This document shows positions 1 to 42,853 of a stretch of DNA of 64,000 nucleotides, piece after piece; position 1 is the stretch's first letter; each line of letters begins with the position of its first letter. The notes under the pieces are model-generated. The model ran no database searches and was not told the DNA's origin. It saw nothing but the letters and a program-made list of their open reading frames with translations. Source of the stretch: Acidimicrobiaceae bacterium (GTDB lineage Bacteria > Actinomycetota > Acidimicrobiia > Actinomarinales > Actinomarinaceae); contig JAOMBT010000002.1 in assembly GCA_028344675.1 (NCBI GenBank), forward strand, positions 830-64,829, in the 5' to 3' direction. Position numbers and translations under genes: made by a program.

Positions 1-1389
1 AATCAAATTTCTTTCCTCTTCATTTAAATCACCATTGAAATTGATATATGACACCTGAGGGACACTTTCTAATATTTTTCTTGCTCTAACTTGTGCATAC
101 TGAATATATATGCCCGTTTTACCATTAGTTTCAGTAAATTGATCAATTTCAAATTTGTAATTCTGAGTTCTATTTGGAATCAGGTCAGAGTAAGTCAGTA
201 TTGTGTTTGTAAGTATTTCTAGGCTATTTTCTTCAGAATTCTTTTTTTTCAATTCATTTTTTATGTCATCTCTTAATGTAGTTAATTTATAAACTCCTCC
301 GTCTCTAGTTTTTAAAGGTTTATTATCGACTCCATTCATAGTTCCATAAGAAATGTGTTGAAATTCTTTATCTGATAAGCCAAAGTAACTTACAGTTGAG
401 AATAGTTGCTTAAAATGATTTGATTGTCTTTGGTCTACGACATAAAGATATTTATTGAAAGCTTGTTTTTCTTCTCTAAAATATATTGTTCCTAAGTCAG
501 TAGTAAGGTAAAGAAAAGACCCATCTGATTTAATTAATATTATTGGAGGTTCATGCTTTTCTTTAGAAACTAAAGCCCCACTATCATCAACTACTTTTTT
601 TTGGATTTTAGCATTTGCGATTACTTTTTTAGTTTCCTCTACAACATCACTTTCACCGTAAAACCAGTCAAAACTGTGCCCCATCTCTTTTAATAATTTC
701 TTGATTTCTGTTACGGATGTTTTATAGATTTTTCTCCAATTGTTCAAAGTTAATTTGTCACCGTTATTTAGTTTTTTAGCAATCTTTTTAGCATTTTCAT
801 AAAAGACTTCATCAGATTTTGCTAGATTATTTGCATCTGGATAAATAGATTCTAGATCTAAATAGTTTACTGAGTTGATATCTATCTTGTTCTTTTCAAT
901 GAATGCCAATATCAGAGCAACAGGCATTCCCCAGTCTCCAAGGTGTATATCGGAGATGATCTTATTACCAGCTAGTTTGTTTGTATTGTAAATAGATCTT
1001 CCAATATTAAGAGTTCTCAAATGTCCAACGTGCAGAGCTTTGCCTATATTAGGACCACCATAGTCAATTATTATTGATTGTTTATTCTCATTTATTTGCT
1101 TGATTTCTGTATTTAAGTTTTCATTAAAGTACTTAATACTTAGTTCAATATTTATAAAATTATTTTTAGCTAATGATACTTTATGAATATATTCATTTTC
1201 GCTTAGAGTATTTTTTAATTCTCTTTTAATTTCTTCAATATTTGAATTTTTAGCATGTTTAACAAGATTATTACACTGAATGTCAACATTTTCAAATTGT
1301 GAGTAGCTTAGTTCTACTAATTCAATAATTGAATATTTTTTTAATACCACTTTAATATCACTAATGATATTTTTAGTTCCAACTATCAT
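1..1389 (-). CDS. argS: Arginyl-tRNA synthetase, N-terminal ~463 aa; the 3' end lies beyond the window start
   Basis: Hand translation of the minus strand from the ATG at 1389 gives MIVGTKNIISDIKV... and then IIDYGGPNIGKALHVGHLRTLNIGRSIYN...DIHLGDWGMPVALILAFIEKN. This aligns with E. coli ArgRS [25 protein letters not shown]...HVGDWGTQFGMLIAWLEKQ (class I HIGH motif region). The ORF is absent from the track because it has no in-window stop. Confidence 0.85.
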   Translation of the reverse strand, partial: MIVGTKNIISDIKVVLKKYSIIELVELSYSQFENVDIQCNNLVKHAKNSNIEEIKRELKNTLSENEYIHKVSLAKNNFINIELSIKYFNENLNTEIKQINENKQSIIIDYGGPNIGKALHVGHLRTLNIGRSIYNTNKLAGNKIISDIHLGDWGMPVALILAFIEKNKIDINSVNYLDLESIYPDANNLAKSDEVFYENAKKIAKKLNNGDKLTLNNWRKIYKTSVTEIKKLLKEMGHSFDWFYGESDVVEETKKVIANAKIQKKVVDDSGALVSKEKHEPPIILIKSDGSFLYLTTDLGTIYFREEKQAFNKYLYVVDQRQSNHFKQLFSTVSYFGLSDKEFQHISYGTMNGVDNKPLKTRDGGVYKLTTLRDDIKNELKKKNSEENSLEILTNTILTYSDLIPNRTQNYKFEIDQFTETNGKTGIYIQYAQVRARKILESVPQVSYINFNGDLNEEERNLI

Positions 1390-1484
1390 GAAGTAATTTT
1401 AATAACTAATAATTTGATTAAATACGATTAACAGATAATTTTAAAAAAAATATTTGTTGATATTGAGCTTAATATAATGTTTAA

Positions 1485-2948
1485 GTGAGAACTGTTAGCT
1501 TATTTTATAAAAAAGAAAATGTGACTATTCTTGGTCTATCATTAATCTTTCTCTACAATCTTAGGGATTTATTGTTTCCCCTTAACTATCAGCAAGATGA
1601 TATTACTGAACTAGAACCTACTTATCTTGAGAGTTTTATGTGTGCATTTGGTTGGGGAGACCAGCACCCTCTATTTTCAGGTATAATTTGGACTCTTTCA
1701 AGAATATTCGAAAGCCCAGAACATGCTGTGTCTATTTTAGTTCTTTTTTTTGGAATTCTAACTATTGTCATATTTTTCAACACTCTATCAAACTTATTTA
1801 ATTATTCTTATGCAGTTTTAGGAACTGTTTTTTTGATAACCTCACCCATTTTTAATACCTACTCAGTTGGACTTAAGCAGTACAATTTTGAAATACTGAC
1901 CTCAGTAATATGCCTGTATTTTTTACAGAAAAATTCAAAAGCATTATTAGTAAAAAAAGATTACATAGTACTTTCAGTATCATCCCTGTTTTTATTTCTC
2001 TTGAGTTTTGTAAATATTCTTATGCTGTTTTTATTATTGTTATTTTTAATAAATAAAATCACTTTAAAACAAACCACTTATTTTGCTACTTTTTTTGCAT
2101 CGGTAGTGATATTCCAAGGTGAACTTATTAGTAAAATTCAAAGAGTTTCTAATGGAGGTTATTGGGATAACTTTTTTATAAATACAACATCAGGTTATGA
2201 ATTTTTTGATTCTTTTTATTTTTTAAGTCAATTATTTTTTAAATCTTTATTTCCTATTGTATTGCATCCAATATCAGTATTTTTGTTATTTATTTCAATA
2301 GTATTTGTTTTTATACGAAATGATTTGATTGTTTTCTATTCACTTTGCTCGATATTCTTACTTTATGTTTTATCAGCTCTAAAGCTCTATCCCCTGGGGG
2401 GAGGAAGAACAGATCTTTTGTTTATACCATTTTTGATAATTATAATTTTAAATTTTTTCAAGTATATTTCAGAAACTATTTTGATTGTAAAAGGTAGTAA
2501 CTCTTTTTTTATTTTAGCTGTGTTGTACTTATCAATAATTTTGTTATTAACTCAGCCGTACTATAAAAATGAAACAATAAATCCTATATTAATTGAGATT
2601 GAAAATACTTATAACAGTGAAGAAGTAGCAATAGTGGTTACAGAAGAACAGAGTCATTCATTTCTTTACTATTCTAAAAAATTATACGGCTTTAGTTATA
2701 AATCTTCTCAAACCTGTTCATTTGAATCAAACATTAATAATTTGTTTATTCAGCGTAATGATGAAAAGATAGAGCCTATAAAAGAAATTCAAAATTTTCA
2801 AGAAATCATATTGGTTGGAATCGAGCTACCAAATACAAGTGGTCAACTAAGGCTTATAACAAATCAATTAATTGACGAAGGTTATCATGTAAAAGATGAA
2901 AAAACATATTCTGGATATCTTAAGCTACTATATTTTACAGAAGGTTAA
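1485..2948 (+). CDS. Polytopic membrane protein with a C-terminal soluble domain; candidate GT-C-fold (ArnT/PMT-like) glycosyltransferase
   Basis: 487 aa with at least 10 predicted hydrophobic helices. An acidic motif (QQDDITELEPTY) follows the first helix and a ~130 aa hydrophilic C-terminus follows the last. Uses a GTG start. Function is inferred from topology only. Confidence 0.35.
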   Translation: MRTVSLFYKKENVTILGLSLIFLYNLRDLLFPLNYQQDDITELEPTYLESFMCAFGWGDQHPLFSGIIWTLSRIFESPEHAVSILVLFFGILTIVIFFNTLSNLFNYSYAVLGTVFLITSPIFNTYSVGLKQYNFEILTSVICLYFLQKNSKALLVKKDYIVLSVSSLFLFLLSFVNILMLFLLLLFLINKITLKQTTYFATFFASVVIFQGELISKIQRVSNGGYWDNFFINTTSGYEFFDSFYFLSQLFFKSLFPIVLHPISVFLLFISIVFVFIRNDLIVFYSLCSIFLLYVLSALKLYPLGGGRTDLLFIPFLIIIILNFFKYISETILIVKGSNSFFILAVLYLSIILLLTQPYYKNETINPILIEIENTYNSEEVAIVVTEEQSHSFLYYSKKLYGFSYKSSQTCSFESNINNLFIQRNDEKIEPIKEIQNFQEIILVGIELPNTSGQLRLITNQLIDEGYHVKDEKTYSGYLKLLYFTEG

Positions 2949-2950
2949 TT

Positions 2951-4093
2951 ATGGAAACCGAAGTCTTTATAATTTCGACATCTTTATTTACAGGAGGTGC
3001 AGAGCGTCAAGCTATTTGGCTTTCTAATTCATTAAGTAAAACAGGTTATACAGTCAACCTCTTGGTACTAAAAAAGGGTGATGAACTTAGTCATTTAGTA
3101 AACAAAAAAGTAAACATCTCAAGATTTAAAATATATTCATCAGACTCCAAGTTAATATTCAAATATTTACGACTAGCAAGACTCGCATTTCTTACCATTC
3201 TTAAAATTAATAAGATGCTTAAAAAGAGTGATAAAAAAAATATAGTAGTAATTTCTTATATGTTTCATTCCTATGTTTTTGGGTTCATCACGAAAATTTT
3301 AAATCCTAAAATTAAACTTATTTATTCAGTAAGAAGTGATCGCTTAGGAAGAAGAACAAGTAAAAAGTCAAAAACTAGACATTTAATATTTAAATTAATA
3401 TCTAAAAACACATACGCAATCTTATTCAATTCAACTAAAGGTATGAATTCTTTTAAAAAAGAATTAAACAAAAAAAGTAATCTTCAATTTATTCCAAACG
3501 GAATAAATTCTATAGATAAATGCGATGATGATAAAACCTCGCAAATAATAAAAGAATTCCTAGGTGATAGTAGTCTGAATTATGTTGTATCAGCGAGAGT
3601 AGACCCCTTAAATAATTATTTTAATCTGATTAAAGCTTTGAGTATTCTTAATCAGAATGGGTGTGATTTTAAATGTGTAATCTTTGGAAGGGGAGTTGAA
3701 TCGGCAAAGATTCAACTACAGATTAAAGATTTAAACCTTTCTGACAAAATTTTGATGATGGGAAATGTAAAAAATGCGTCTTCATATTATCACTTTTTCA
3801 ATCTGTTAATCCATCCCGCTTTTCACGCAGGTTTCTCTAATTCAGTCACTGAAGCTATTCAGATTGGTCTAAATGTTGTTATTGGCAAAGTTGGAGATAC
3901 AACAAACATATTTAATAAAAGTAATTTAGTTTTTGAACTATTTACTGAGGATGCAATATACAAATCAATAAATAACTTTAACAATCTTGAACCACAAGAA
4001 AAAGAAATGTTAATCATAGAATCACAAAATAAACTTTATAGTCTCTTAAACAATGACAAGACTATAAAAAAGTGGGTGGATATTATTGAATAA
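2951..4093 (+). CDS. Glycosyltransferase, GT-B fold (GT4 family)
   Basis: N-terminal FIISTSLFTGGAERQAIWLSNSL is typical of a GT4 N-terminal domain. The length and C-terminal domain are consistent with retaining GT4 enzymes. Confidence 0.7.
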   Translation: METEVFIISTSLFTGGAERQAIWLSNSLSKTGYTVNLLVLKKGDELSHLVNKKVNISRFKIYSSDSKLIFKYLRLARLAFLTILKINKMLKKSDKKNIVVISYMFHSYVFGFITKILNPKIKLIYSVRSDRLGRRTSKKSKTRHLIFKLISKNTYAILFNSTKGMNSFKKELNKKSNLQFIPNGINSIDKCDDDKTSQIIKEFLGDSSLNYVVSARVDPLNNYFNLIKALSILNQNGCDFKCVIFGRGVESAKIQLQIKDLNLSDKILMMGNVKNASSYYHFFNLLIHPAFHAGFSNSVTEAIQIGLNVVIGKVGDTTNIFNKSNLVFELFTEDAIYKSINNFNNLEPQEKEMLIIESQNKLYSLLNNDKTIKKWVDIIE

Positions 4094-8432: not shown

Positions 8433-9216
8433 ATCAACTGCTTATTTTATTAATTCAATTGTTAAAGAAATTTCGGATGTATTTTATTGGTCAAAATTAC
8501 CGAATAATGAATTTACTAATAAGGGATTTGTAATTATAGAAAATTTTTTAGATAGTGATTTATGTGATGAGTTAGTTCAAGTTGGAATTCAAAATACAAA
8601 AGAAAAGTCTCAAATGATTGCTGATAATGTTTGGATAAATGTTAGAGCTGAAGCTGCAGATGGTAAAGACAGTAAGGTAAAAAATATATTTAATTTTAAT
8701 TTATTAAATAAAAAGTTAGATGATTTAATTAATTCAAATGTTTTAACAGAAAAATTAGAAGAACAACTAGGTGATAAAGTAATTCTAAAAACTTGTTCCT
8801 TACAAATTGACGAGCCAGATATTAGAACTAAGAGGAGCTGGCATGTTGATAGGAACCCCCCTCCTACTTTTAAAGCATTTATCTACTTAACCGATGTAGA
8901 TTCTGAATTAGAGGGACCATATTGTGCCATTCCAGGTTCACACAAATGGAGAATTAAAAGATTATTAAATATATTCACAAATCTAGTTACTGGAGCAAAA
9001 AGATCTGATATGCATAGATATATTGGCGAAAGGGATGATTATTTTCTTGCTAAAAAAGGTACATTAATTTTTTCAACACAGACTTTATTTCACCGTGGAA
9101 GTCCTAAGCATGAAAGTAAAACTAGATACATGTTAATAAACTATTTTAAGGCTGAAAAATTTGATGATGGTAAAGAATTCGAATTAGGAAAACCAGAAGA
9201 ATGGATGATGAACTAA
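8395..9216 (+). CDS. Phytanoyl-CoA dioxygenase (PhyH)-like Fe(II)/2-oxoglutarate oxygenase
   Basis: SWHVDRNPPPTFKAFIYLTDVDSELEGPYCAIPGSHKW and a later FHRGSP give an HxD...H facial triad in a PhyH-like arrangement. Confidence 0.5.
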   Translation: MMIFLTSVKKMIKSTAYFINSIVKEISDVFYWSKLPNNEFTNKGFVIIENFLDSDLCDELVQVGIQNTKEKSQMIADNVWINVRAEAADGKDSKVKNIFNFNLLNKKLDDLINSNVLTEKLEEQLGDKVILKTCSLQIDEPDIRTKRSWHVDRNPPPTFKAFIYLTDVDSELEGPYCAIPGSHKWRIKRLLNIFTNLVTGAKRSDMHRYIGERDDYFLAKKGTLIFSTQTLFHRGSPKHESKTRYMLINYFKAEKFDDGKEFELGKPEEWMMN

Positions 9217-9222
9217 GCTATC

Positions 9223-10020
9223 ATGTCAAAACACAAGGCGGCGATTTTAACAGGAGGAAGCGGATTTTTAGGTAAGCACTTTATAAATGGACTATCAAAA
9301 AACCACCAAACAATATATATTTTGGATACAAAAGAGCTCAATAAAGAAATTAAAAACAATTTTAGTACCATAGATATTCAATTTTTTAATGTAAATGTTT
9401 CTGAAGAAAAAGAGGTTGTAAATTTTTTCAACTCTATTGTAGAAAATGAAATTCCATTAACTACATTATTAAATGCCGCAGCAAGCAACCCCTCAATTAA
9501 TTTAGATGGCATGATGGATAGTTCAAAATTTGAAGATTTTAAGGTGTTGAATTTTAACTCTTCATTGATTAATTCACTAACAGGAAGTGCGCTAATGTGT
9601 AGAGAGTTTGTTAAACTCGCTTCAATTCAAAATAATGGTTATGAAAAGTTGATATTAAATATAGGATCAGATTTATCTGTAATTGCTCCAGATAATAGAA
9701 TTTATGAAAAAGAAGGAAGCAGCGAAGAGATGTTTAAACCAATAGAATATTCAATTTCAAAACACGGCATCTTGGGTCTTACTAAGTATCTTGCAGTTTA
9801 CCTTGCTGATAAAAATTTTAGAGTAAATACACTGTCTCCAACAGGAGTATTTAATAATCAAGACAAAGAGTTTATAAAAAATTTTTCAAACACTGTTCCA
9901 CATGGGAGAATGCTTAATCCTGAAGAGTTGGTATCACACGTATCATATCTTACAAGTGAAGATTCTAAATTTTTAACTGGTCAAAATATTTTGGTTGACG
10001 GAGGAAGGTCAATCTGGTGA
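9223..10020 (+). CDS. Short-chain dehydrogenase/reductase (SDR)
   Basis: N-terminal AAILTGGSGFLGKHF (TGxxGxxG Rossmann motif). Catalytic YSISKHG (YxxxK). Confidence 0.7.
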   Translation: MSKHKAAILTGGSGFLGKHFINGLSKNHQTIYILDTKELNKEIKNNFSTIDIQFFNVNVSEEKEVVNFFNSIVENEIPLTTLLNAAASNPSINLDGMMDSSKFEDFKVLNFNSSLINSLTGSALMCREFVKLASIQNNGYEKLILNIGSDLSVIAPDNRIYEKEGSSEEMFKPIEYSISKHGILGLTKYLAVYLADKNFRVNTLSPTGVFNNQDKEFIKNFSNTVPHGRMLNPEELVSHVSYLTSEDSKFLTGQNILVDGGRSIW

Positions 10021-11515: not shown

Positions 11516-11811
11516 AAATCTTTAAAAAATATTTTATCGGAAATTCCCTTATCATCAACAAATATATCAGCGTCAGGTTTGCCAAATATTAATTCATTAT
11601 ATTTGACTCCCCAATCTTTTAACTGCTGTTTTGTTAGTTCAGTCCAATCAAGGTTTGTAGTACTACCTCTTGCTGTGAACAAAATTATTTTATGATCTTC
11701 AATGTATAGTTTGTTTACTAAGTTAATTCTGTCGACAAAAGGTTCAGCTTTTTCATAGTCTCCATTTGTATTTGTACAAATCGTTCCATCAATGTCGAAA
11801 CAATAATTCAC
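11512..11811 (-). CDS. Small capless HAD-superfamily phosphatase
   Basis: FDIDGTIC (motif I, DxDGT), FTARGS (motif II), GKP (motif III) and FVDDKG (motif IV) in only 99 aa. Translationally coupled to the neuB-like gene. Could be a sugar-phosphate phosphatase (GmhB-like, or a nonulosonate-9-P phosphatase). Confidence 0.55.
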   Translation of the reverse strand: MNYCFDIDGTICTNTNGDYEKAEPFVDRINLVNKLYIEDHKIILFTARGSTTNLDWTELTKQQLKDWGVKYNELIFGKPDADIFVDDKGISDKIFFKDL

Positions 11812-13796: not shown

Positions 13797-13834
13797 TTTT
13801 TTAATACTAATAGGTGTATAGTAAATAATATCTA

Positions 13835-14542
13835 ATGAACAATATTAACTCTATTGCGATTATTTTGGCTCGAGGTGGCAGTAAAGAAATTCCGAATAAA
13901 AATCTTGAGACTATCAATAATAAATCTCTTTTAGAAATTACAATTAATCAAATCAAACAAGAGGTAAATATTGATATATTTGTTTCTTCAGATTCAGAAA
14001 ATATTCTTGATCAAGCTTCCAATTTTAATTGTTTTCCAATTAAACGTCCTGATCACTTATCTGGAGATGAGAGTTTGTCAGAGGATGCAATACTACATGC
14101 TATTAATTTTATTGAAAAAAATTTTAATATTGAATTTAATACAATATTATTTCCACAATTAACTTCACCGCTTAGAAATAATAAAAATTTTAAAGAAGCT
14201 CTTGAATTATATGAAAATAAAAATTATGATTCTCTTTTTTCATCTAATGATGCAAGTGACTGTCTTTTGTGGAGTAAAGATAAAACCGGAAAGCTCATTG
14301 AGGTAAATTTTAATAATAAAGAGAGAACAAGAAGACAGGAAAAAGATTTACAATTAATTGAGAACGGCTCTTTTTATATTTTTGATAAAGATAAATTTAA
14401 GATTCATAAAACAAGATTATTTGATTCAATAGGTGAGTACAGGATGGAATCATGGCAAGTATTTGAAATTGACAATTTTGATGATTTAGAATTATGTAGA
14501 CACATATCTAAAATAAAGAATATTGATGGGATTTATGGATAG
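13835..14542 (+). CDS. neuA: CMP-nonulosonic acid synthetase (acylneuraminate cytidylyltransferase family)
   Basis: IAIILARGGSKEIPNKNL matches the CMP-NeuAc synthetase P-loop-like signature IPARGGSKGIPxKN. 235 aa. Confidence 0.8.
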   Translation: MNNINSIAIILARGGSKEIPNKNLETINNKSLLEITINQIKQEVNIDIFVSSDSENILDQASNFNCFPIKRPDHLSGDESLSEDAILHAINFIEKNFNIEFNTILFPQLTSPLRNNKNFKEALELYENKNYDSLFSSNDASDCLLWSKDKTGKLIEVNFNNKERTRRQEKDLQLIENGSFYIFDKDKFKIHKTRLFDSIGEYRMESWQVFEIDNFDDLELCRHISKIKNIDGIYG

Positions 14543-15512
14543 TAAAAGAAAAGTTTGGATAAATGGGCAACTTTTACCTGAGTCAGAGGCAAAAGTACCA
14601 ATTTATGATTCAGCACTAATGTTTGGTGATACAGTATTTGAGATGACAAGATCATTTAATAAAGAACACTTTCTATTAGATGAGCACATAGACAGGCTTA
14701 ATGCTTCTGCAGAGTTTGTAGAGATAAAAATGCCTTATACTAAAAATCAGATACTTGATGCAATTGAAGAAGTTACGGAATATCACAATAATATATTCAC
14801 TTCTGACGATGAACATAGGTTAATGATCAACCTTACAAGAGGTTTGTTGGGAATATATGAAAATAATGTAGATTTTCCCGTGAAAGGTCCTATTTTAACT
14901 ATTGCTAACTTCCCTCTAAAGTGGACTGTATCTGGAATGTCAGATTATTTTTTTAATGGTATTCATGCAGTTGTTTCTAATCAAAAAATGATTCCAGATT
15001 TTCTGCTTAATGCAGCAGTAAAAAACAGAAGCAGACTTCATTATATGATGGCAAATATTGATGTGTCTAAAATGAATTTAGAGAGAGCGTGGGCATTATT
15101 AGAAGATTTAGAAGGGAATATCTGCGAAGGGACTGGTTCAAATATTTTTTTTGTTAAGAATGACGAAATTTTTACTCCAAAACCAAAAAATATGTTGAGA
15201 GGGATATCTAGGCAGTATGTTATTGACTTGGCCAGAAAAAATAATATCAACGTATACGAGGAAGACATAAAAGAAGAAGATTTTTCAAGTTTTTCTGAAG
15301 CTTTCTTTACTGCTACACCCTTCTGTATGGTTCCATGTTTTAAACTAAATGACCACATTTTAGACTTTCGACCTGAAGGTGGAATATACAATAAGGTGCT
15401 TTCTTTATGGTCTAATGAGGTTAGTGTAGATATTGAAAAACAAATAGTAAATTGGAATAAAGAAAAAGATTATTCTGGAAATAACTCAACCCCCTATAAG
15501 TTTAAAAACTAA
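14523..15512 (+). CDS. Aminotransferase class IV (BCAT / D-amino-acid aminotransferase fold)
   Basis: WINGQLLPESEAKVPIYDSALMFGDTVFEMTRSFNKEHFLLDEHIDRLNASAEF is a fold-type IV PLP enzyme N-terminus. Overlaps neuA by 20 nt. Confidence 0.65.
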   Translation: MMGFMDSKRKVWINGQLLPESEAKVPIYDSALMFGDTVFEMTRSFNKEHFLLDEHIDRLNASAEFVEIKMPYTKNQILDAIEEVTEYHNNIFTSDDEHRLMINLTRGLLGIYENNVDFPVKGPILTIANFPLKWTVSGMSDYFFNGIHAVVSNQKMIPDFLLNAAVKNRSRLHYMMANIDVSKMNLERAWALLEDLEGNICEGTGSNIFFVKNDEIFTPKPKNMLRGISRQYVIDLARKNNINVYEEDIKEEDFSSFSEAFFTATPFCMVPCFKLNDHILDFRPEGGIYNKVLSLWSNEVSVDIEKQIVNWNKEKDYSGNNSTPYKFKN

Positions 15513-16711
15513 CTTTTTACATTTTTAAATCTTAAACTACAAACAAAAATGATTACTAGAAAAGGTTCAATTAAAACTCTAGTTCTTGAATTCCCAAATG
15601 GTAATATTGATGAGACCACTATATATCCAACCGTTATTAGCAAAAGGCTCAATAAAAAATCACTTTTATTTTTACTAAGAACCATCCTCAATAATGAAAA
15701 ATTGATTAATGATACATAAATTAGTGAAAATAATCTAATAGATAAATATACGTAATTGTTATCACTAATACTTTCCCAATTTGATCCCCTAATTCCGAAC
15801 ATATTCCATACAGTACTTCTTGATATTGAAAGTAACTTACAGTGAACATTTTTAAAAAATCCAATTTTGGAGTCTAGTTTTAATTTATTTATCAAAATTT
15901 TAGAATCACTTTGCTTAGATAAGTTATTTTCTAATAGCCAGTTTTCAAAAACATACCCCGGTTCTGAAACTTCTAACTCATTAAAATCATAATTTTTGCA
16001 AATATTATTACTTGCTGTATTGAACCATTGCATGTGGAATGAACTGCTAGTTGAGTAAAAACTAGTTTCATACTGTATATAATTATTCACATAAACAGAA
16101 CCAATTAAAATTACAGGAAATAAAGCAATTTTAAAATAGTTAGTCAGTTTTTTATTTCTTCTAAGAATTAAAAGTATTAAATAAAAAAACACCACATAAA
16201 GGCCTAAGGGTTTAATTATTCCAAGCAAACCTACCGAAAGACCACTAAATGTATATTTTTTTTCATCAAAAAAATAAAAAGATGTAAACAATAATGTTGT
16301 CGATATACTTTCTGTCATGATTTGTGTAGAGCTAATTAGAGAATTTGGATTAATTAAAAATATTATGCAACCAATGCAGGCAATAGTTGAATCATAATAT
16401 TTGAATAAAATTTTATAAATTAAGTATAGAGTCAGTAAGTCTGCAATAAAATTTACAAAAATTAATAGGTTAACATCAAAGATTTTATGAAATATATTTA
16501 TAAGTAGTGGGTAACCAGGCATTCTAAATGTACTTAGCCAATAATCGTTAAGATTATCATTTAAAAAGTAATATGAAATATTACTGGAAAGCTCTAAATA
16601 GTGATCTGAGTCTTTAGTAAGATATATTTTTTCTAATTTAGAAGCATAGATTAGAAATAAAAATCTAGAAAAAATCAGAAATGATATAGAAGTTTTTGTA
16701 ATTTTTTCCAT
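15509..16711 (-). CDS. Polytopic membrane protein; candidate O-antigen polymerase or GT-C-like glycosyltransferase
   Basis: 400 aa, ~10 helices. First-loop motif DSDHYLELSSNI resembles the ArnT/PMT DExxY..I pattern. Confidence 0.35.
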   Translation of the reverse strand: MEKITKTSISFLIFSRFLFLIYASKLEKIYLTKDSDHYLELSSNISYYFLNDNLNDYWLSTFRMPGYPLLINIFHKIFDVNLLIFVNFIADLLTLYLIYKILFKYYDSTIACIGCIIFLINPNSLISSTQIMTESISTTLLFTSFYFFDEKKYTFSGLSVGLLGIIKPLGLYVVFFYLILLILRRNKKLTNYFKIALFPVILIGSVYVNNYIQYETSFYSTSSSFHMQWFNTASNNICKNYDFNELEVSEPGYVFENWLLENNLSKQSDSKILINKLKLDSKIGFFKNVHCKLLSISRSTVWNMFGIRGSNWESISDNNYVYLSIRLFSLIYVSLINFSLLRMVLSKNKSDFLLSLLLITVGYIVVSSILPFGNSRTRVLIEPFLVIIFVCSLRFKNVKS

Positions 16712-16816
16712 CTAGTAAGTATAAATTTATACATAAAAATTCTCCTATAAAAATGAATACAATATAAGTAAACAACCTTATAGTTTTACGGTTTTAGTAC
16801 TAGAATTACCAAAATA

Positions 16817-18478
16817 ATGAACAAAATTTTAAAAATTGCGATTATTGTTGATGATTTGTTTATTTCTGACTACATTGCTGATTTAATTACCTGGTCAGAA
16901 AATATTGATTGTATTGATATCTCAAACTTCGTATATCTAGTTAATGATAAAGAAGATAGATTACCAAAGAAATCCAGACTGCAAAAGATACTCTCTATGG
17001 ATTTTTGGAAACAATATCCAAGAAGAAGACTTAAAAATTTTATTGTTTCACTTGAAAAAAAGAGAAATTTAAAAAATAATAAAATTCATCAAAATTCAGT
17101 TGATAAACATAATTTATACAATTTTGGATTGAAAAAGATAGAAGTACATCAGGAACCAACAAAATCTAAAGTGTCATTTAGAGCTACCCAAAAATCTTTA
17201 GATCTTTTAAAGAAGGAACAATTTGATCTTTTTATTCGATTTAATAAAAAAATAATAAGAGGCGATCTTTTGACGGTTTCAAATTTTGGCATTCTTTCAA
17301 TGCATCATGGAAGCGATCTTAACTATAGAGGTGGCCCATCAGGTTTTTGGGAGGTTTATAATAGTGATAATAAGTCTGGATATATTATCCAACAACTTAC
17401 TGAAGAGCTAGATAATGGAAATATATTATTTAGAGGTTTTATCCCAACTCAAAAATCTTGGCTATTAAATAAGTCAGAATTAAATATAAGATCTTTTTTC
17501 TATCTTAAAAAAATAATTTTTGAGATAAGCAAAGCGCACGAACTTCCTAATTTTTTGGTCAATGTTCCATATTCAAAGAGTTTGAATAAAGATCCAACAA
17601 TTTTTGTGATGATCAAGTATTTATTTAAAAAACTTAAAAACAAACAAGACTCAAAAAAATTTAAAAATGCTGATAATAGATATCTAGTTGGTTATCAGGA
17701 GGGAGAGTGGGGAAGCTTGAACTATCGAAATGCTAATTTTATCAAGAATCCAGATAACAAATTTTTAGCTGATCCATTTATAATTTCAAAAAATCATAAA
17801 AACTATTGTTTTTTAGAATCGTACGATTACTTTTTGGATAAAGGAACCATAGATGTTTATGAACTCACGAGCGGTAATAGTGAATTTTTAGGCACTGCCA
17901 TTGAAGAAGAGTTTCATTTGTCATTCCCATATTTGCTTGAGACAGAAAACGAAATATATTTAATTCCTGAAAGTTCAAAAAATAGGGATATAAGAATATA
18001 TAAGTCAATTGACTTTCCACTAAAGTGGAAATTGGAAAACGTAATAATAGATGATATCGATGCTTCGGATTCTATAATTTTTCACCGAGATAATTTATGG
18101 TGGCTACTAACCAATGTTGATGAACTAGGTTTAGGAGATCATAATTATCAAATGAATATTTACTATTCTGATAATTTATTATCACAAGATTGGAAACCAC
18201 ATAATTTAAATCCGATTATATTAAATCCCTCCTATGGACGTAATGGAGGTTTTTTAAAAAAAGGCGATAACTTGTATAGGGTTGCACAAAAATATGGCTT
18301 CAATCAAAAGTATGGCGAAGGAATTTCAATTAGAAAAATTCAAGAGATAACAAAAAATTCTTATGTGGAGGAAGAAATTGCTTCATATGTTGATTTTTAT
18401 GATGACAGTATTCTTGGAACTCATCATTTGTCATCAAATAATATTTTTACAGTATTTGATATCTGGAAAAGTCCATAA
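16817..18478 (+). CDS. Formyltransferase-domain protein fused to a ~300 aa C-terminal domain of unknown function
   Basis: ILSMHHGSDLNYRGGPSGFWEVYNSDNKSGYIIQQLTEELDNGNILFRG aligns with the PurN/Fmt core LNIHPSLLPKYPGLHTHRQAL...GTSVHFVTDELDGGPVILQ. The catalytic Asn is replaced by Ser (SMH instead of NIH). The C-terminal 300 aa are unrecognised. Confidence 0.5.
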   Translation: MNKILKIAIIVDDLFISDYIADLITWSENIDCIDISNFVYLVNDKEDRLPKKSRLQKILSMDFWKQYPRRRLKNFIVSLEKKRNLKNNKIHQNSVDKHNLYNFGLKKIEVHQEPTKSKVSFRATQKSLDLLKKEQFDLFIRFNKKIIRGDLLTVSNFGILSMHHGSDLNYRGGPSGFWEVYNSDNKSGYIIQQLTEELDNGNILFRGFIPTQKSWLLNKSELNIRSFFYLKKIIFEISKAHELPNFLVNVPYSKSLNKDPTIFVMIKYLFKKLKNKQDSKKFKNADNRYLVGYQEGEWGSLNYRNANFIKNPDNKFLADPFIISKNHKNYCFLESYDYFLDKGTIDVYELTSGNSEFLGTAIEEEFHLSFPYLLETENEIYLIPESSKNRDIRIYKSIDFPLKWKLENVIIDDIDASDSIIFHRDNLWWLLTNVDELGLGDHNYQMNIYYSDNLLSQDWKPHNLNPIILNPSYGRNGGFLKKGDNLYRVAQKYGFNQKYGEGISIRKIQEITKNSYVEEEIASYVDFYDDSILGTHHLSSNNIFTVFDIWKSP

Positions 18479-18515
18479 ATCAGTGAATATTGTAGTAAGT
18501 ATATTTCTATACTGA

Positions 18516-19470
18516 ATTAGGGGGTATTATTTCTTATTTAAGTAGAGCTATTATTTTTGAAAAAGAATTATTAAATAGTTTTGGAGTAAACAATATTAAT
18601 TTAATTGATGTTGGTTCTTCATTTAACCTTTTTGAGCCATTTAACCATATTGAATATAGTTGGAGGAAAGATTTAAAAATCTTATGTTTTGAACCAAATG
18701 AAGAAACTGACATAGTATCTTCAAAAGCAACAAGAATAAATATTAACAATGCCTTATGGAGCAATGAGCAAAAAATTAATTTCCATATTGCTAAAGAAAA
18801 AAGTAAGTCATCTGTTCACCCTCCTAATATTGAACTAATCAAAAAATTTAGTGATGAAAATTGGATTGAACGTGTGACAGATAAAACTGTTGAAATTGAT
18901 GCCGTGACTTTAGATAGTGTTATAAATCAATATAAATTTGAAGCGGATTTTATCAAAATTGACACACAGGGCTCGGAGTATGAGATCTTAGAAGGAGCCA
19001 AGAAATCAATATCCAAAGGTATTTTTGGAGCTTTACTTGAAACATGGTCATATCCATTTCACCAGGATCAAAAACTTATTTATGATGTTATGAAAATTAT
19101 GGATGATAATGGATATTTTCTTGTTGATTTGAATAAAGGTGGTTACTATCGTCGAAAAACAGTTCAAAATTCTACTTTATTTCTTGGTCAGATAGGTCAA
19201 CTTGACCTACTCTACTTTGAAACTTTTGAAAAATTTACGTCTACTGATAAATCGAATGAAAAGATAGTTAAGGCTGCATGTCTAGCTGACTTATATGGAA
19301 TGACTGATTATTCAGTTGAGTTACTAAATCATTACGGTAATTTTACTGAGCTAATTGAACAAATTTTAAAAAAAAGAAAAACACTCATAAAAAATGTTGA
19401 AAATCAATGGAGAGTTGAAAAGATAAAAAATCTTTTAAAATTTCAACCAAGAACTCCACCACTTCATTGA
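18516..19470 (+). pseudogene. FkbM-family methyltransferase, apparently frameshifted near 18597-18606 and lacking a canonical start
   Basis: Frame 0 reads ...FEKELLNSFGVNNINFN* and frame +1 continues (T)ILILIDVGSSFNLFEP...NALWSNEQKINFHIA...DFIKIDTQGSEYEILEGAKKSI. Together they give a typical FkbM N-terminus (LL..G...I.DVG) and the IKIDVEG motif. There is no ATG/GTG/TTG between the upstream stop (18513) and the motif. The listed ORF 18874..19470 is only the 3' part. Confidence 0.45.
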
Positions 19471-19698
19471 TTTTACAATTTTTGGTTCATTTCAATTTCA
19501 AATTAGCATCTATTTGTGGCATTCGTTGCAAGTTCAACATATGTAGTTGTGTTCGATAGAGACTCTTCACCTAACTCTATATAGTAAGGATCAACTGTTT
19601 CCAATCCTTGAACTTACATTTTTATTTGAAAAAAACACCTTCAGAATTGGCTAAGGAATCTAAATTTCCAGCTATTCTGTAATTTTTTGGTATTTAAT

Positions 19699-20160
19699 TT
19701 ATTTCTGTACACAAATATACACCCATGGCTTCAGACTGTCGTCATTGTTTCTTGCTTTGCCATTTATTTTATAAGTTGTTGCACCTAAGCTTTTAAATAA
19801 GTTTTCTAATCCAATAGCACTAATAGCAATTGGGTCAGTTTCAGATACTGATTTAAAATTTTTAGGATCATGTGACGCTGAATGATTTAAAATCAAAATG
19901 CCATCGGTTTTTAAATGTGATAACCAATTTTTAAACATACTATTAGGATTGAATGAATGGTCCCAAGAATTACTATATATAAAATCAAACGTATTTTTCC
20001 ACTCCAATTTATCACAATTCATATCGAAATTAATAGTGTTAGGATATTTTTCAAGATTTGGACCGATGTCAGTTCCAAATACATATGAATCATGGTTTAA
20101 AAATTTATTAAACCACTCTTGTTCTTTTCCTGTTCTAGTACCGTGACAAACACCACTCAA
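19699..20160 (-). CDS. Class I SAM-dependent methyltransferase, probably 5'-truncated (TTG start directly after an in-frame stop)
   Basis: FDFIYSNSWDHSFNPNSMFKNWLSHLKTDGILILN matches the post-motif-I/II region of Methyltransf_11/23 enzymes. The reading frame begins (K)LSGVCHGTRTG immediately after a TGA, with no room for the usual N-terminal ~30 aa. Confidence 0.45.
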   Translation of the reverse strand: MSGVCHGTRTGKEQEWFNKFLNHDSYVFGTDIGPNLEKYPNTINFDMNCDKLEWKNTFDFIYSNSWDHSFNPNSMFKNWLSHLKTDGILILNHSASHDPKNFKSVSETDPIAISAIGLENLFKSLGATTYKINGKARNNDDSLKPWVYICVQK

Positions 20161-20430
20161 TTTTCAATGAAAGCTATGTTTCCATAAATTTTTTAAATAA
20201 TTTTTATGATATCGATTTTATTACATGGGATAATATTCCCAATATGGAGGCAGAGCAAATACCAAACTTTTATAAAGATTATGACTTCGTTATATTTGAA
20301 TCTTCTATTGATTCTTTTTTTGAAAGTAGAATATTAAAATTTTCAAACTAAAAATTTTGAACAAAAGTGCAGTTATGTGGGCAGTTTTGATTAGTTTATT
20401 TGTGAAGACCAATATAGCCTATGTTTATTG

Positions 20431-20503
20431 TGGCCAGAGGCAGAATCGAACTGCCGACCCCTTGTTTTTCAGACAAGTGCTCTACCGACTGAGCTATCTG
20501 GCC
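20431..20503 (-). tRNA. tRNA-Phe (anticodon GAA)
   Basis: The reverse complement folds as GGCCAGA-TA-GCTC-AGTCGGTA-GAGC-A-CTTGT-CTGAAAA-ACAAG-GGGTC-GGCAG-TTCGATT-CTGCC-TCTGGCC-A. Full cloverleaf. Loop CT-GAA-AA. No encoded CCA (followed by CAA). Confidence 0.9.
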
Positions 20504-20579
20504 AGTTAGATTATTATATTACAAACAAAATAAAGAAGTAATAGAAAATTTTTCTTATTTTGTGAGGTAATCTATTTTT

Positions 20580-21356
20580 GTGAATAAAAAAATTACCATA
20601 ATTTTAAATTCTCTAAAATTTCAATCATTCAGTTTTTTAAAATATGTTTTTTTTAAGAAAAAAAGAAAACGTATTAAAAGACATGCCACAGATTATTTTT
20701 ATAATTTACCATGTATAGATTTTGATAATTGGGCTAAAGAAATAGATATAAATTTATTTAATGAGATGCAAAAATTCCAAGTACATTTTCAAGAGTATGA
20801 AACAAATTTTAATTTTACCTATTTAGGAGGAGCTCGTGGACTTAATCAGTACGGCGCACTTTATTTCTTAACAAGGTTGATAAAACCCCAAAACACTTTA
20901 GAAACGGGAGTTGCAAATGGCTTCTCATCCTATAGTTTTCTGAGTGCTATTGAAAAAAATAATTTTGGAAGATTAATTAGTAATGATTTGCCGCCATTGG
21001 ACATAGAAAAGAAAAATTGGAAATATATTGGCCAGATGGTTCCCAAAAAATTTCACAATATTTGGACATTGCATCTAGGCAGTGATCGAAAAAATTTGAA
21101 TTCAATTTGTAAAGAAAACACATTTGACTTGGCACATTTTGATAGCGATAAACTATCTTCGGGAAAAATGTACTGTATCAATACGCTATTGAAGTACAAC
21201 AAAACGTCACCTATTATTCTAATTGACAATTGTGCAGATGACTTTTTTTGGAAAAACTTAATAATAAAATCATATAAAAAAGTTGTTTTTGATCAAAACA
21301 CTAAAAGATTTGGAATCTTAATTCATAAAGATGACATTACAAATTTTCAACTGTAG
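20580..21356 (+). CDS. Class I SAM-dependent methyltransferase-like protein (Methyltransf_24 / CmcI-like)
   Basis: LGGARGLNQYGALYFLTRLIKPQNTLETGVANGFSSYSFLSAI resembles the E(I/T)G(T/V)xxGxS motif-I region of O-methyltransferase family 3. GTG start. Sits alone between tRNA-Phe and tRNA-Asp. Confidence 0.4.
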   Translation: MNKKITIILNSLKFQSFSFLKYVFFKKKRKRIKRHATDYFYNLPCIDFDNWAKEIDINLFNEMQKFQVHFQEYETNFNFTYLGGARGLNQYGALYFLTRLIKPQNTLETGVANGFSSYSFLSAIEKNNFGRLISNDLPPLDIEKKNWKYIGQMVPKKFHNIWTLHLGSDRKNLNSICKENTFDLAHFDSDKLSSGKMYCINTLLKYNKTSPIILIDNCADDFFWKNLIIKSYKKVVFDQNTKRFGILIHKDDITNFQL

Positions 21357-21360
21357 ATAG

Positions 21361-21435
21361 CGGGGACGACGGGATTCGAACCCGCGACCTCCTGCGTGAC
21401 AGGCAGGCGTGAACTCCAGACTTCACCACGCCCCC
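21361..21435 (-). tRNA. tRNA-Asp (anticodon GTC)
   Basis: The reverse complement is GGGGGCG-TG-GTGAA-GTCTGGAG-TTCAC-G-CCTGC-CTGTCAC-GCAGG-AGGTC-GCGGG-TTCGAAT-CCCGT-CGTCCCC-G. The anticodon arm is identical to the canonical bacterial tRNA-Asp. No CCA encoded. Confidence 0.85.
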
Positions 21436-21636
21436 GAAAAATTTATTCCACTTAATACTAATAGTTATTAACTATATTTAATTTATTAAAAAAATAATTT
21501 TACAAAACTGATTTTTTAATTGTTATGTACATAAGTAATCTATTTACAATTAATAGATATGGATACACAATAAAGAGGGTTATTAATACTTTCAAACTAA
21601 ATCTTTATATAGAAAAATTTATAAGATTAATATTTC

Positions 21637-25613: not shown

Positions 25614-26741
25614 ATGGAATTAAATTATATAACTTATCAAGGTATTCCTAGTAATACTGCTCATGGAATACATACCTTTTCTTTAATTAAATACTTTGTA
25701 AAGAATGGATTAGATATAAAACTTGTATTTCCATTACGAGATAAGGGTGCAACTACTGAATTAACCAAGTTACAAAATCATTATGAAATCAATGAAAATT
25801 TTAAGATTGAAGCAACAAAACATTATCTTCCGTTTGGTCGAACAAAATTTCTTAAGAAATATACATATTTATTCAGTCATATTTTATGGTCTTTTTATAT
25901 TTCAAAAAAATACAAAAAAAACAGTAAAGATTTAGTTTTTACTTTGTCAGATTGGGTTTTCTATTTCTTGTCAAAAAAAAATATTAATGTAACTTACGAA
26001 TGTCACGACTTAACCGTTATTAGAAAAAAATTAATTAAGAAAGCCTTACTTTTCCCCAATTCAAAAATAATTTGCATTAATAAATTTGTCAAAGAGGACC
26101 TAGGTCTTGAAGAAAGTAAAAATGTTGTTGTATTGGAAAATGGATTTGATCATGAAGTATTTTCTCAAAAAATAAAAAAAGAATCTCCAATTAGGGTTTT
26201 GTTTGCAGGAAACTTAGAAAGATTCGGTAAAACAAGGGGTATTGAGCAAATTATCAAATATTTTTTAAAAACTAATTTTTCAAAAAAAGTCCAGCTTCAT
26301 ATCTTTGGAGGTCCTACATCACTAGTAGAAAATTTAAGACATAAATACAATCATGAGAGTTTATTTATTCATGGACATATAAAGAGATCAGAACTATCCA
26401 AAGAAATGGCAATATCTCATATTGGAGTGCTCACTAATATTGAAAGTACCCATTCACAAAGACATACTTCTCCACTTAAATTTTATGAGTACATTGGCTC
26501 GGGATTAAAGGTACTAGCTACAGATGCTTTAACACATAAATCTCTTCCGTATCAAGATTCAGTTTATTTCTTTGATTTAAATAATTTTGAAAGTTTTAAA
26601 AATTCAATTAGTTTAGCGATTGATAATATAACAAAAAACGAATCTTTAAATTATGAGAAGTCAACAATTGACTTTAGAGTTAAAGCGATTATAAAGTTTA
26701 TCTCTGCGCGCCCGGAAGGACTCGAACCCTCAACCCCCTGA
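25614..26741 (+). CDS. GT4 glycosyltransferase (WbuB-like); 3' end reads 35 nt into tRNA-Arg
   Basis: SPLKFYEYIGSGLKVLATDA matches the WbuB-type GT4 motif (PxKLFEYMAaGkPVI). The last 12 codons (ISARPEGLEPSTP) are antisense to the tRNA-Arg 3' half, so the native C-terminus may have been replaced. Confidence 0.55.
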   Translation: MELNYITYQGIPSNTAHGIHTFSLIKYFVKNGLDIKLVFPLRDKGATTELTKLQNHYEINENFKIEATKHYLPFGRTKFLKKYTYLFSHILWSFYISKKYKKNSKDLVFTLSDWVFYFLSKKNINVTYECHDLTVIRKKLIKKALLFPNSKIICINKFVKEDLGLEESKNVVVLENGFDHEVFSQKIKKESPIRVLFAGNLERFGKTRGIEQIIKYFLKTNFSKKVQLHIFGGPTSLVENLRHKYNHESLFIHGHIKRSELSKEMAISHIGVLTNIESTHSQRHTSPLKFYEYIGSGLKVLATDALTHKSLPYQDSVYFFDLNNFESFKNSISLAIDNITKNESLNYEKSTIDFRVKAIIKFISARPEGLEPSTP

Positions 26742-26780
26742 TCCGAAGTCAGGTGCTCTATCCAATTGAGCTACGGACGC
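26707..26780 (-). tRNA. tRNA-Arg (anticodon TCG)
   Basis: The reverse complement is GCGTCCG-TA-GCTC-AATTGGATA-GAGC-A-CCTGA-CTTCGGA-TCAGG-GGGTT-GAGGG-TTCGAGT-CCTTC-CGGGCGC-G. The acceptor has one G-T pair. Loop CT-TCG-GA. No CCA. Confidence 0.8.
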
Positions 26781-27912
26781 AAAAATCTAATAATTTTTTG
26801 TTTCTATATTCCCAAGAGTAGTTGGGTATATTCCTCTTAGAGTTTTCTATAAGTTGTTCTCTAATCTTTTTATTCTCTAGAAGATATTTTATTTTTAATT
26901 TAAAGTCTTCGTAGTCATCATGTTTGAAATACTCAATACCTAAACCAGAATCTTTTAGTTCTAGATTGCTTTTTATGTCTGAAGCAATAACTACAGTACC
27001 ACTTGCTGCGTATTCAAAAATTTTTAGTGGAGAAGCATAGTTTGACATGTGATAGTCATCTGGGTATGGAACTATTCCAATATCAAGGCTTTTCATATAA
27101 TCAGGAACTTCATATTTTGGTATTTTGTACAAATGGTCAAATTCGGTTTCATTATCTTGAAAATCTTCAATAATTTCATCAATTTTTTTACTAGGACCAC
27201 CAATTAAAGTTAATTTAAAATCAAAATCTGTGGAAAGTTTTTTCAATTCGTTAAATGCTTTTCTTACTCCTTTGTCCTTACCATATGTTTCTAGCATTCC
27301 AATGTATCCAATGTTTAATTTATTTGTTTTTTTTCTTGAACTTTCTTCTTTGTAGTCATTGATACTCACACCATTAGTTAAATATATTGTTTTCTCAGGT
27401 GAAAGCTTGTAAAGCTCTTTGAATGAAGTTTGTGAAGTACCAACAAAAATTACATTCTTATACTTAGAGAGTTTATTAATAACATATTTTTGAATATATT
27501 TTCCTGCTCCATGCTTTTCGTATATAAGCGTAGCTTTTGAAGACACCTGCCTAAGTAATATATTTGGGTTAGTTGACCATAGGTAATCTTCCATGCTTAT
27601 GTAGGAATTTAAATTTTTAGACCATAAATTGGCACCCAGATTCCAAATAATTTTTGTTATAAAACTCGGAAGAATTTTATAAAATCTATATTTAGTAAAA
27701 TCATAGTTTTCGACTTCTATGAAGTTTATTCTTGAATTTTTGTAATACTGTGCAGGAGATATTTCTATTGTCTTATCGTTGTTTGTTTTTGAGTAGTAAA
27801 CAGTTACAGTAGTTTTATTGTCTATAAACCCGTTAGCAATATCAATAATATGCGAACCGTATGCTTTTTCAGTTGGAAACCTTCCGTAAACTAACAGACC
27901 TATTTTTTTCAT
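26758..27912 (-). CDS. GT4 glycosyltransferase (WbuB-like)
   Basis: ASPLKIFEYAASGTVVIASD (WbuB-type motif) and GMLETYGKDKG (GT-B C-terminal domain start). Paralogous motif to 25614..26741. Confidence 0.65.
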   Translation of the reverse strand: MKKIGLLVYGRFPTEKAYGSHIIDIANGFIDNKTTVTVYYSKTNNDKTIEISPAQYYKNSRINFIEVENYDFTKYRFYKILPSFITKIIWNLGANLWSKNLNSYISMEDYLWSTNPNILLRQVSSKATLIYEKHGAGKYIQKYVINKLSKYKNVIFVGTSQTSFKELYKLSPEKTIYLTNGVSINDYKEESSRKKTNKLNIGYIGMLETYGKDKGVRKAFNELKKLSTDFDFKLTLIGGPSKKIDEIIEDFQDNETEFDHLYKIPKYEVPDYMKSLDIGIVPYPDDYHMSNYASPLKIFEYAASGTVVIASDIKSNLELKDSGLGIEYFKHDDYEDFKLKIKYLLENKKIREQLIENSKRNIPNYSWEYRNKKLLDFCVRSSIG

Positions 27913-42623: not shown

Positions 42624-42779
42624 ATTATGGAGTAGATATGGTTTATCACGACATCATATCAATATTAATTTTTTCAACTGTCATCTATTTAGTTTATAGG
42701 CTTTACAAAAGGTTTTAATTTTTCTACAAAATGTGGGCTTGAGTGGTTTTTTGTAGGGTATATTTCTGAAAAACCCTTG

Positions 42780-42853
42780 TGGGCGCTACAGGATTTGAAC
42801 CTGTGACTTCTTCCTTGTAAGGGAAGCGCTCTGCCGGACTGAGCTAAGCGCCC
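42780..42853 (-). tRNA. tRNA-Val (anticodon TAC)
   Basis: The reverse complement is GGGCGCT-TA-GCTC-AGTCCGGC-AGAGC-G-CTTCC-CTTACAA-GGAAG-AAGTC-ACAGG-TTCAAAT-CCTGT-AGCGCCC-A. No CCA (followed by CAA). Confidence 0.85.

Follow-up and report, generated by a model that had tools for sequence, protein, structure and literature searches.

According to the available portions of the published description, the flexible island fGI1 of Candidatus (Ca.) Actinomarinales is a hypervariable region bounded by transfer RNA (tRNA) genes and involved in envelope polysaccharide synthesis; the tRNAs of the island are hot spots of cassette insertion, small cassettes at these tRNAs are flanked by direct repeats of partial tRNA sequence, and the diversification of glycotypes is ascribed to phage pressure (Lopez-Perez et al. 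2020, PMC7771536). The preprint 'Actinomarina, resolved' stresses, in its available part, that the hypervariable region is difficult to assemble (bioRxiv 10.64898/2026.04.03.716425). Here we analyzed a 64,000-nt stretch of a metagenome-assembled genome (MAG) of this group (contig JAOMBT010000002.1; the whole stretch is hereafter called the window), in which an FkbM-family methyltransferase gene, designated (a), a minus-strand class I methyltransferase frame, (b), and a plus-strand C-terminal fragment, (c), lie next to tRNA-Phe. A previous interpretation, made from the letters alone (the sequence-only reading), had taken all three for decaying methyltransferase genes. Taken as a whole, our analysis makes it quite likely that the locus combines one very recent 2,505-nt deletion, which left (b) and (c) as stumps, with an intact FkbM gene that most likely starts at an AUU codon.

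We assign the window to fGI1, the flexible envelope-polysaccharide island, in a genome of Ca. Actinomarinales (OCS155), because its glycosyltransferase family 2 (GT2) gene adjoining tRNA-Asp, which is 87% identical to that of OCS155 cluster bacterium AG-426-D23 (a single-amplified genome, SAG, of Ca. Actinomarinales), its five tRNAs, and its low guanine-plus-cytosine (GC) content fit what PMC7771536 describes. Besides the taxon, the low GC content, and tRNAs that include those for Phe, Asp, Lys, and Arg, it shares with the portrayed island the glycosyltransferases, methyltransferases, and O-acyltransferases, and the related loci L014, L020, and L032 show tRNA repeats. It differs from the island dynamics presented there in that the event behind (b) and (c) is an internal microhomology deletion rather than a tRNA-targeted cassette swap, and the available portions of PMC7771536 and of bioRxiv 10.64898/2026.04.03.716425 mention neither this deletion nor an ATT start of FkbM. 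As in other microhomology deletions, a collinear stretch of 2.5 kb has been lost between short repeats (4 nt exact, 9 nt imperfect), leaving two 5'-truncated genes; what sets this case apart is a highly streamlined genome, in which remnants are rare, and its capture before further decay.

The archetype of AUU-initiated genes is E. coli infC, which is autoregulated. Initiation at AUU is known but rare: initiation factor 3 (IF3) discriminates against non-canonical starts (PMC9723500), and degenerate start triplets have been described (PMC5499595). The FkbM gene resembles genes of the infC type in that AUU stands at the initiator position, is conserved in diverged lineages, and follows a Shine-Dalgarno (SD)-like motif at canonical spacing. 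It differs in encoding an accessory envelope methyltransferase instead of a translation factor and in having no known regulatory loop, and its AUU start is a prediction from comparative sequence data.

Near-identical strains point to a single recent deletion

A metagenome scan with the FkbM protein retrieved two independent contigs, L032 (Ga0222718_10005907) and L033 (VMHT01054785.1), both of which share 99.8% identity with the window as far as positions 20164-20172. Nucleotides 1-6995 of L032 correspond to window positions 13178-20172 and nucleotides 9485-9808 to positions 20157-20480, while L032 6988-9492 (2,505 nt) is missing from the window; L033 enters the same extra DNA and follows it for ~380 nt to the end of the fetched stretch, with 2 mismatches in 420 nt. 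In this extra DNA, codons 1-98 of (b) are separated by a divergent intergenic region of 72 nt from an entire MBOAT gene (440 aa), after which come codons 1-272 of an AlgX-like gene. Base-by-base comparison with L032 and L033 places the junction at 20161..20164, where a TTTT microhomology lies within an imperfect 9-nt repeat, TCA[A/T]TTTT[T/C]. The deletion relative to near-identical strains, its junction, and the identities of the deleted genes are direct observations, and intact versions of the (b), MBOAT, and AlgX-like genes do stand at the same position in a related strain, L032.

By this comparison, (b) and (c) appear as the two sides of a single deletion. It also appears to be very recent, because both stumps are identical to the intact alleles; they carry zero substitutions, and the left flank carries 13 in 6,987 nt. 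Gradual decay does not fit two unaltered stumps that share one junction. The deletion allele is rare, because the truncated 153-aa protein is recorded on 1 contig (MDC0076730.1) and the intact 252-aa protein on 14.

We propose that illegitimate recombination at the TTTT microhomology removed the 2,505 nt in one event. This loss would have taken away the promoter region and the first 98 codons of (b), the whole MBOAT gene, and the first 272 AlgX-like codons, the stumps (b) and (c) would have been left back-to-back, joined at 20164/20165, and the TGA-AAA-TTG head of (b) would be a by-product of the junction. We infer that the deletion is biological and not an assembly artefact. If so, the strain would have lost one O-acylation and one methylation step of its envelope glycan and become a new glycotype variant; the loss of an O-acylation module together with a methyltransferase would be an instance of the glycotype microdiversity that is thought to drive phage evasion in abundant ocean bacteria. 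The locus would then catch gene loss in a streamlined genome almost as it occurred, and the islands of Actinomarinales would change by plain microhomology deletion besides tRNA-targeted cassette insertion.

Remnant (b) lacks the N-terminal region of a class I methyltransferase

Remnant (b) (19699..20164, minus strand) comprises codons 99-252 and the stop codon of a 252-aa class I S-adenosylmethionine (SAM)-dependent methyltransferase, as delimited by the intact L032 allele and by homologues. The open reading frame (ORF) itself (19699..20160, minus strand) begins with a TTG at 20158-20160, two codons past an in-frame TGA at 20164-20166. The sequence-only reading had correctly noted that this TTG directly follows the TGA and that the N-terminus is missing: all seven full-length homologues, which are 241-254 aa long, possess a conserved, helical N-terminal region of ~98 residues that precedes GVCHGTRTGKEQ and is absent from (b). 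The homology of the window DNA to L018, L002, and L014 ends exactly at 20164, and in L002 and L018 the full-length (b) gene begins 14 nt after tRNA-Phe. Stump (b) is very probably non-functional, because it begins at beta-1 of the Rossmann fold (motif I, GVCHGT) and is devoid of the helical N-terminal region. A point on the other side is the open frame of 153 codons, including a TTG, that persists in (b) and may allow residual expression.

The assignment to class I methyltransferases is supported at the structural level. An AlphaFold2 (AF2) model of the full-length homologue P0051 (predicted local distance difference test, pLDDT, 83) has the class I methyltransferase fold, and a Foldseek search with this model against the Protein Data Bank (PDB) gave 706 matches at E <= 0.001, headed by the CurJ C-methyltransferase (1.4e-8). 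Pfam methyltransferase profiles stayed below the gathering score for (b) (Methyltransf_11, 19.5 bits vs a cut-off of 21.2), no Pfam methyltransferase hit was found for P0051, P0054, or P0057, and a profile search of the (b) family against PDB sequences returned only a chance hit (E = 0.089).

We also considered read-through of the TGA at 20164-20166 as selenocysteine or tryptophan, and rejected it: the frame upstream is the antisense of the AlgX-like remnant, two more stops lie 17 codons upstream, and the TGA itself was made by the deletion junction. Members of the (b) family elsewhere show peculiarities of their own. At L014 7711-8354 (16 Tara contigs; L014-L017), the (b) homologue carries a TAT-to-TAA change at codon 54 relative to L018, and the 117-aa ORF called there also stops early, which amounts to independent pseudogenisation in another lineage. 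The 305-306-aa proteins P0081 and P0084 are gene-caller artefacts, namely ORFs that run through tRNA-Asp and tRNA-Phe into methyltransferase (b).

Remnant (c) derives from an AlgX-like protein encoded next to an MBOAT gene

Remnant (c) (20165..20351, plus strand) consists of the last 62 codons and the stop codon of a 334-aa AlgX/AlgJ-like SGNH protein, as established by phmmer and by identity with L032. The open frame extends over 20139..20351 (plus strand) and has no start codon before an internal ATG at 20244; the true edge of (c) is 20165 rather than 20139, as 20139-20164 is the antisense of remnant (b). A word-indexed protein search with (c) found nothing, and the parent was identified by an exhaustive phmmer search against 1.8 billion representatives, in which (c) aligned with the C-termini of proteins of ~330 aa (best E, 6.6e-10) that carry the Pfam ALGX (SGNH-like) domain. 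In L032, (c) is identical to codons 273-334 of the gene at 8675..9679. The view of (c) as a start-less C-terminal fragment was thus accurate, and its attribution to a methyltransferase was mistaken, the parent being an AlgX-like SGNH protein. Nor are (b) and (c) naturally short proteins, given full-length homologues of 241-254 aa and ~330 aa, respectively.

The 334-aa parent in L032 scores marginally on PF16822 ALGX (26.8 bits, cut-off 26.5). Directly upstream, with a 1-nt overlap, lies the MBOAT gene (440 aa, E = 2.2e-37). This order, an MBOAT gene followed by an AlgX-like SGNH gene, recalls the AlgI/AlgJ/AlgX and DltB/DltD modules, and the Joint Genome Institute (JGI) annotation names the MBOAT protein 'AlgI'. 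The likeness has limits: in L032 the TIGR04091 DltB score is 138.6 vs a cut-off of 375 and the ALGX score is at the margin, and in the window only the last 62 SGNH codons of such a module are left.

The FkbM gene appears intact

The FkbM-family methyltransferase gene (18529..19470, plus strand; 313 codons and a TGA, with a putative ATT start at 18529-18531) was delimited by Pfam and TIGRFAM profiles and by homologues. Translation of 18481-19473 gave one open frame from 18499 to 19470 with its TGA stop at 19468-19470, and this single frame holds ...NLIDVGSSFNLFEPF... together with the complete FkbM domain (PF05050, 58.5 bits, cut-off 22.7, E = 1.2e-15; TIGR01444, 50.4 bits, cut-off 37.7). SAM-binding motif I has a D-x-G-x-x-x-G-like pattern. 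The corresponding motif here, LIDVGSSFN (18601-18627), is in frame with the FkbM domain and is kept in all homologues. It had been described as split over two frames at 18597-18606; no frame change exists there.

The gene has the same length, 313 stop-free codons, in 7 other lineages, and the 7 comparisons contain no indels. Whole-gene ratios of nonsynonymous to synonymous substitution rates (dN/dS) are 0.08-0.15, out to a dS of ~2, and within the first 34 codons the proportion of nonsynonymous differences (pN) is below that of synonymous ones (pS) in 7/7 comparisons. Pseudogene signs (frameshift, premature stop, relaxed selection) were looked for against these 7 lineages and none was found. 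The intact frame and the signature of purifying selection are observed directly, and the gene is, as far as sequence comparison can tell, intact and under purifying selection, because dN/dS is 0.08-0.15 and neither a stop nor a frameshift is present. The earlier view of FkbM as a damaged gene does not survive this uninterrupted, constrained frame with its conserved ATT. The same applies to a homopolymer sequencing error, which is ruled out because independent assemblies and diverged lineages have the same frame and the same ATT.

Translation of FkbM most likely starts at a conserved AUU

The earlier statement that FkbM has no start codon was borne out for the canonical triplets: the frame contains no ATG, GTG, or TTG for 125 codons, the first being GTG 18874. 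Open frames of 150 codons or more number 51 in the window, and this one alone has more than 20 codons before a canonical start. We compared the 5' regions of the gene from 12 distinct lineages. The first 31 codons align without gaps in 12/12 lineages, and in all 12 the codon preceding S-Y-(L/I) is ATT (18529 in the window). In-frame stops lie 3-10 codons upstream of this ATT in L002, L006, L012, L013, and L040; because of these stops in five lineages, the ATT is the only shared start candidate. In L006, a 1-nt indel directly upstream of the ATT disrupts the upstream frame, and nucleotide homology to L002, L018, and L010 starts at 18527-18529, the region upstream being otherwise unalignable. 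The distribution of variable columns over codon positions changes at the same point, from 11/12/12 of 12 over the 36 nt before the ATT to 15/8/26 over the 31 codons after it. The window has an ATT-ATT pair at this place, of which the first ATT is not conserved.

Distant homologues agree with this position. The FkbM proteins P0015-P0019 (33-36% identity) begin with MSF..S.LF, and their Met1 aligns with the Ile of ISYLSRAIIF in the window, that is, with ATT 18529. In the DNA of L043, a distant homologue, the ATG was verified and has an AGGA motif 5 nt upstream. In the window, a G-rich, SD-like motif, AGGGGG (18519..18524, plus strand), lies 4 nt upstream of the ATT, and a G-rich motif (GGAG, GGGGG, GAGG, or AGG) is found 4-5 nt before the ATT in 11/12 lineages. 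Canonical codons inside the gene are not conserved among lineages. Collectively, these comparisons indicate that FkbM translation most likely starts at the conserved AUU (ATT 18529), with the aid of an SD-like motif of unusual strength.

Several points weigh against this assignment. This AT-rich genome uses ATT more than any other Ile codon, which makes invariance of the codon by itself only moderate evidence, and another Ile column (codon 9) is likewise invariant ATT. The L010/L011 lineage has no convincing SD-like motif. AUU is also a weak initiator in the model bacteria tested. If the AUU is decoded as fMet, the expected N-terminal tryptic peptide would be MSYLSR or MSYLSRAIIFEK; otherwise, it would begin with ISYLSR.

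By comparison, an SD-like tetramer occurs within 20 nt upstream of 12/52 other ORFs of the window, a count that uses mechanically called ORF starts, vs a background of 14%, and the host thus seems to depend little on SD pairing. Two features near the start were examined and set aside. The longer N-terminus of P0001 (MNQGV...) is a gene-call artefact, its upstream ATG being reached by reading TAG as Q. An upstream mini-ORF, ATG AAT TAG, present in L001 and L006, was considered as a coupling device for FkbM; its first codon is CTG in the window, and it is absent in other lineages.

The absence of a canonical start has left its mark on annotation. The calls for 14 close protein clusters (64-93% identity) begin at various downstream codons, or upstream in the case of P0001, and never at the N-terminus indicated by the alignment; FkbM models in the databases range from 188 to 299 aa, some without the SAM-binding motif, and the Prokaryotic Genome Annotation Pipeline (PGAP) model in the source MAG is a 252-aa protein from an internal ATA, with motif I dropped. 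All the database entries seen misannotate the gene as short, since gene callers admit no start other than ATG, GTG, or TTG; the shortening in public databases is clade-wide, and the real start is most likely the ATT. An AUU start across the clade in an accessory methyltransferase would be a new example and not a new principle.

It is possible, although we consider it doubtful, that selection maintains the AUU and the strong SD-like motif together as a throttle, perhaps sensitive to IF3, on the translation of an envelope methyltransferase. The conservation of the ATT is an observed fact: it is retained down to ~64% protein identity (dS ~2, the most distant pair measured), and one T-to-G change would turn it into ATG. 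If the throttle were real, it would count among the few documented examples of a streamlined marine bacterium conserving a non-canonical initiator, and it would imply that standard gene callers shorten this gene family systematically.

Alternative explanations

A different account of the missing canonical start is that, throughout the clade, FkbM is a start-less pseudogene or owes its translation solely to an internal canonical codon (GTG 18874 in this strain). The stretch of 125 codons devoid of ATG, GTG, and TTG would be expected under it, as would the shortened models that gene callers give everywhere. However, a product from GTG 18874 would be without SAM-binding motif I (DVGSS), and the internal canonical codons are unconserved between lineages; moreover, protein-level conservation covers the first 34 codons, where variable sites are in excess at third positions, and the whole-gene dN/dS stays at ~0.1 out to dS = 2. 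This account is thus quite improbable, and an AUU-started, functional FkbM remains the preferred reading. For the deletion, the counterpart is that the truncated allele is a product of metagenome assembly or binning and that the real genome has an intact three-gene module as in L032. The allele is on a single MAG contig, which may be a chimeric assembly join, as opposed to 14 contigs with the intact protein; the stumps show no further mutations, and the region is described as difficult to assemble in the available part of bioRxiv 10.64898/2026.04.03.716425. Set against this, the repeat at the junction measures only 4 nt if exact and 9 nt if imperfect, which is not enough to deceive an assembler that works with k-mers; the change amounts to a plain collinear loss, both flanks keep their native orientation, and recent deletions are expected in flexible islands. 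We consider an artefact unlikely, though worth some weight, because any assembler uses k-mers far longer than a 4-nt microhomology.

Less probable than either is the decay zone of the sequence-only reading, in which three independently inactivated methyltransferase genes mark a cassette replacement at tRNA-Phe. The island does evolve by insertion of tRNA cassettes with partial-tRNA repeats, as set out in the available portions of PMC7771536 and seen in L014, L020, and L032, and the (b) family has been inactivated independently in L014-L017 (TAT-to-TAA). Of the three supposedly damaged genes, however, (b) and (c) are true remnants, whereas FkbM appears to be an intact gene subject to purifying selection; a single junction is common to (b) and (c), one deletion relative to L032/L033 suffices for both, and (c) does not come from a methyltransferase. 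The tRNA-proximal flank (20165-20429) is collinear with L032, and a search of the window for a second copy of the 3' part of tRNA-Phe (<=3 mismatches in 30 nt) found none, nor any repeat family involving tRNA-Phe. The suggestion of a recent cassette replacement or recombination therefore holds for a recombination-type deletion and fails for a cassette swap at the tRNA, because the window has no partial tRNA-Phe repeat. Overall, the preferred reading, a single deletion beside an intact FkbM gene, describes ordinary island microdiversity with a modestly interesting, probably non-canonical start and a systematic annotation error, and it leaves current concepts unchanged.

Genomic setting of the locus

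The low-GC segment of the window (1-40 kb) has about 26-29% GC, with 31-33% at 28-32 kb, and carries glycosyltransferases, methyltransferases, and five tRNAs (Phe, Asp, Lys, Arg, Val). The core segment (40001-64000) has about 32-37% GC and contains genes for ribonucleotide reductase (RNR), pyruvate phosphate dikinase (PPDK), the glyoxylate shunt, and FabH/FabF. The abrupt GC step near tRNA-Val (42779-42853) fits an island boundary. Window proteins are represented in the databases by entries MDC0076727-32 (locus tags OAJ33_00590-00605), and the source MAG contig, which is 92 kb long, has records of both the 153-aa and the 258-aa protein.

A non-coding spacer of 228 nt (19471..19698) separates FkbM from remnant (b), the two genes being convergent; it is long considering how short the intergenic regions of this genome are. 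In sequence comparisons with all fetched loci (tblastx and blastn), its only counterparts were the close strains L032 and L033 at 99% identity, a 149-nt part of L041 at 78%, and 22 nt in L035. No Rfam model reaches its gathering score in the spacer, which also contains no terminator-like site; with a permissive E-value, Rfam returned tRNA only over 19300-20700, and scans for promoter and terminator consensus sequences over 18300-21500 stayed at shuffle level. The spacer may be another recombination scar.

tRNA-Phe (GAA; 20430..20503, minus strand) and tRNA-Asp (GTC; 21360..21435, minus strand), both called by ARAGORN and Rfam, are parted by 856 nt (20504-21359) containing a Methyltransf_24 class I methyltransferase gene (20580..21356, plus strand; PF13578, E = 1.6e-9), which is not decayed and is antisense to both tRNAs. 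The 856-nt insert has no flanking partial-tRNA repeat, and the gap between the two tRNAs is only 4-5 nt in L002, L014, and L020.

Related loci show insertions at tRNA-Phe itself. At L014 7259-7695, and also in L015-L017, a 100-aa SET-domain gene is located between tRNA-Phe and a 45-nt repeat of the 3' part of the tRNA; this insert is a one-gene cassette with no integrase nearby. In L020, an OCS155 SAG, positions 10998-11736 hold a gene for a 127-aa membrane protein between tRNA-Phe and a second, aberrant 'tRNA-Phe' call of 80 nt, which is probably a partial repeat (att scar). In L032 (9758-9824), the undeleted strain, only a 43-nt piece from the 3' end of tRNA-Phe comes after the AlgX-like gene, with divergence just before the contig end, which suggests a further cassette between this 43-nt repeat and the real tRNA-Phe. 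Elsewhere in the window, tRNA-Arg (26706-26780) is overlapped by 23-36 nt by both neighboring glycosyltransferase-type ORFs (25614..26741, plus strand; 26758..27912, minus strand), and the same overlap recurs in L014, where the genes at 895..2049 and 2066..3205 extend into tRNA-Arg (2027-2101).

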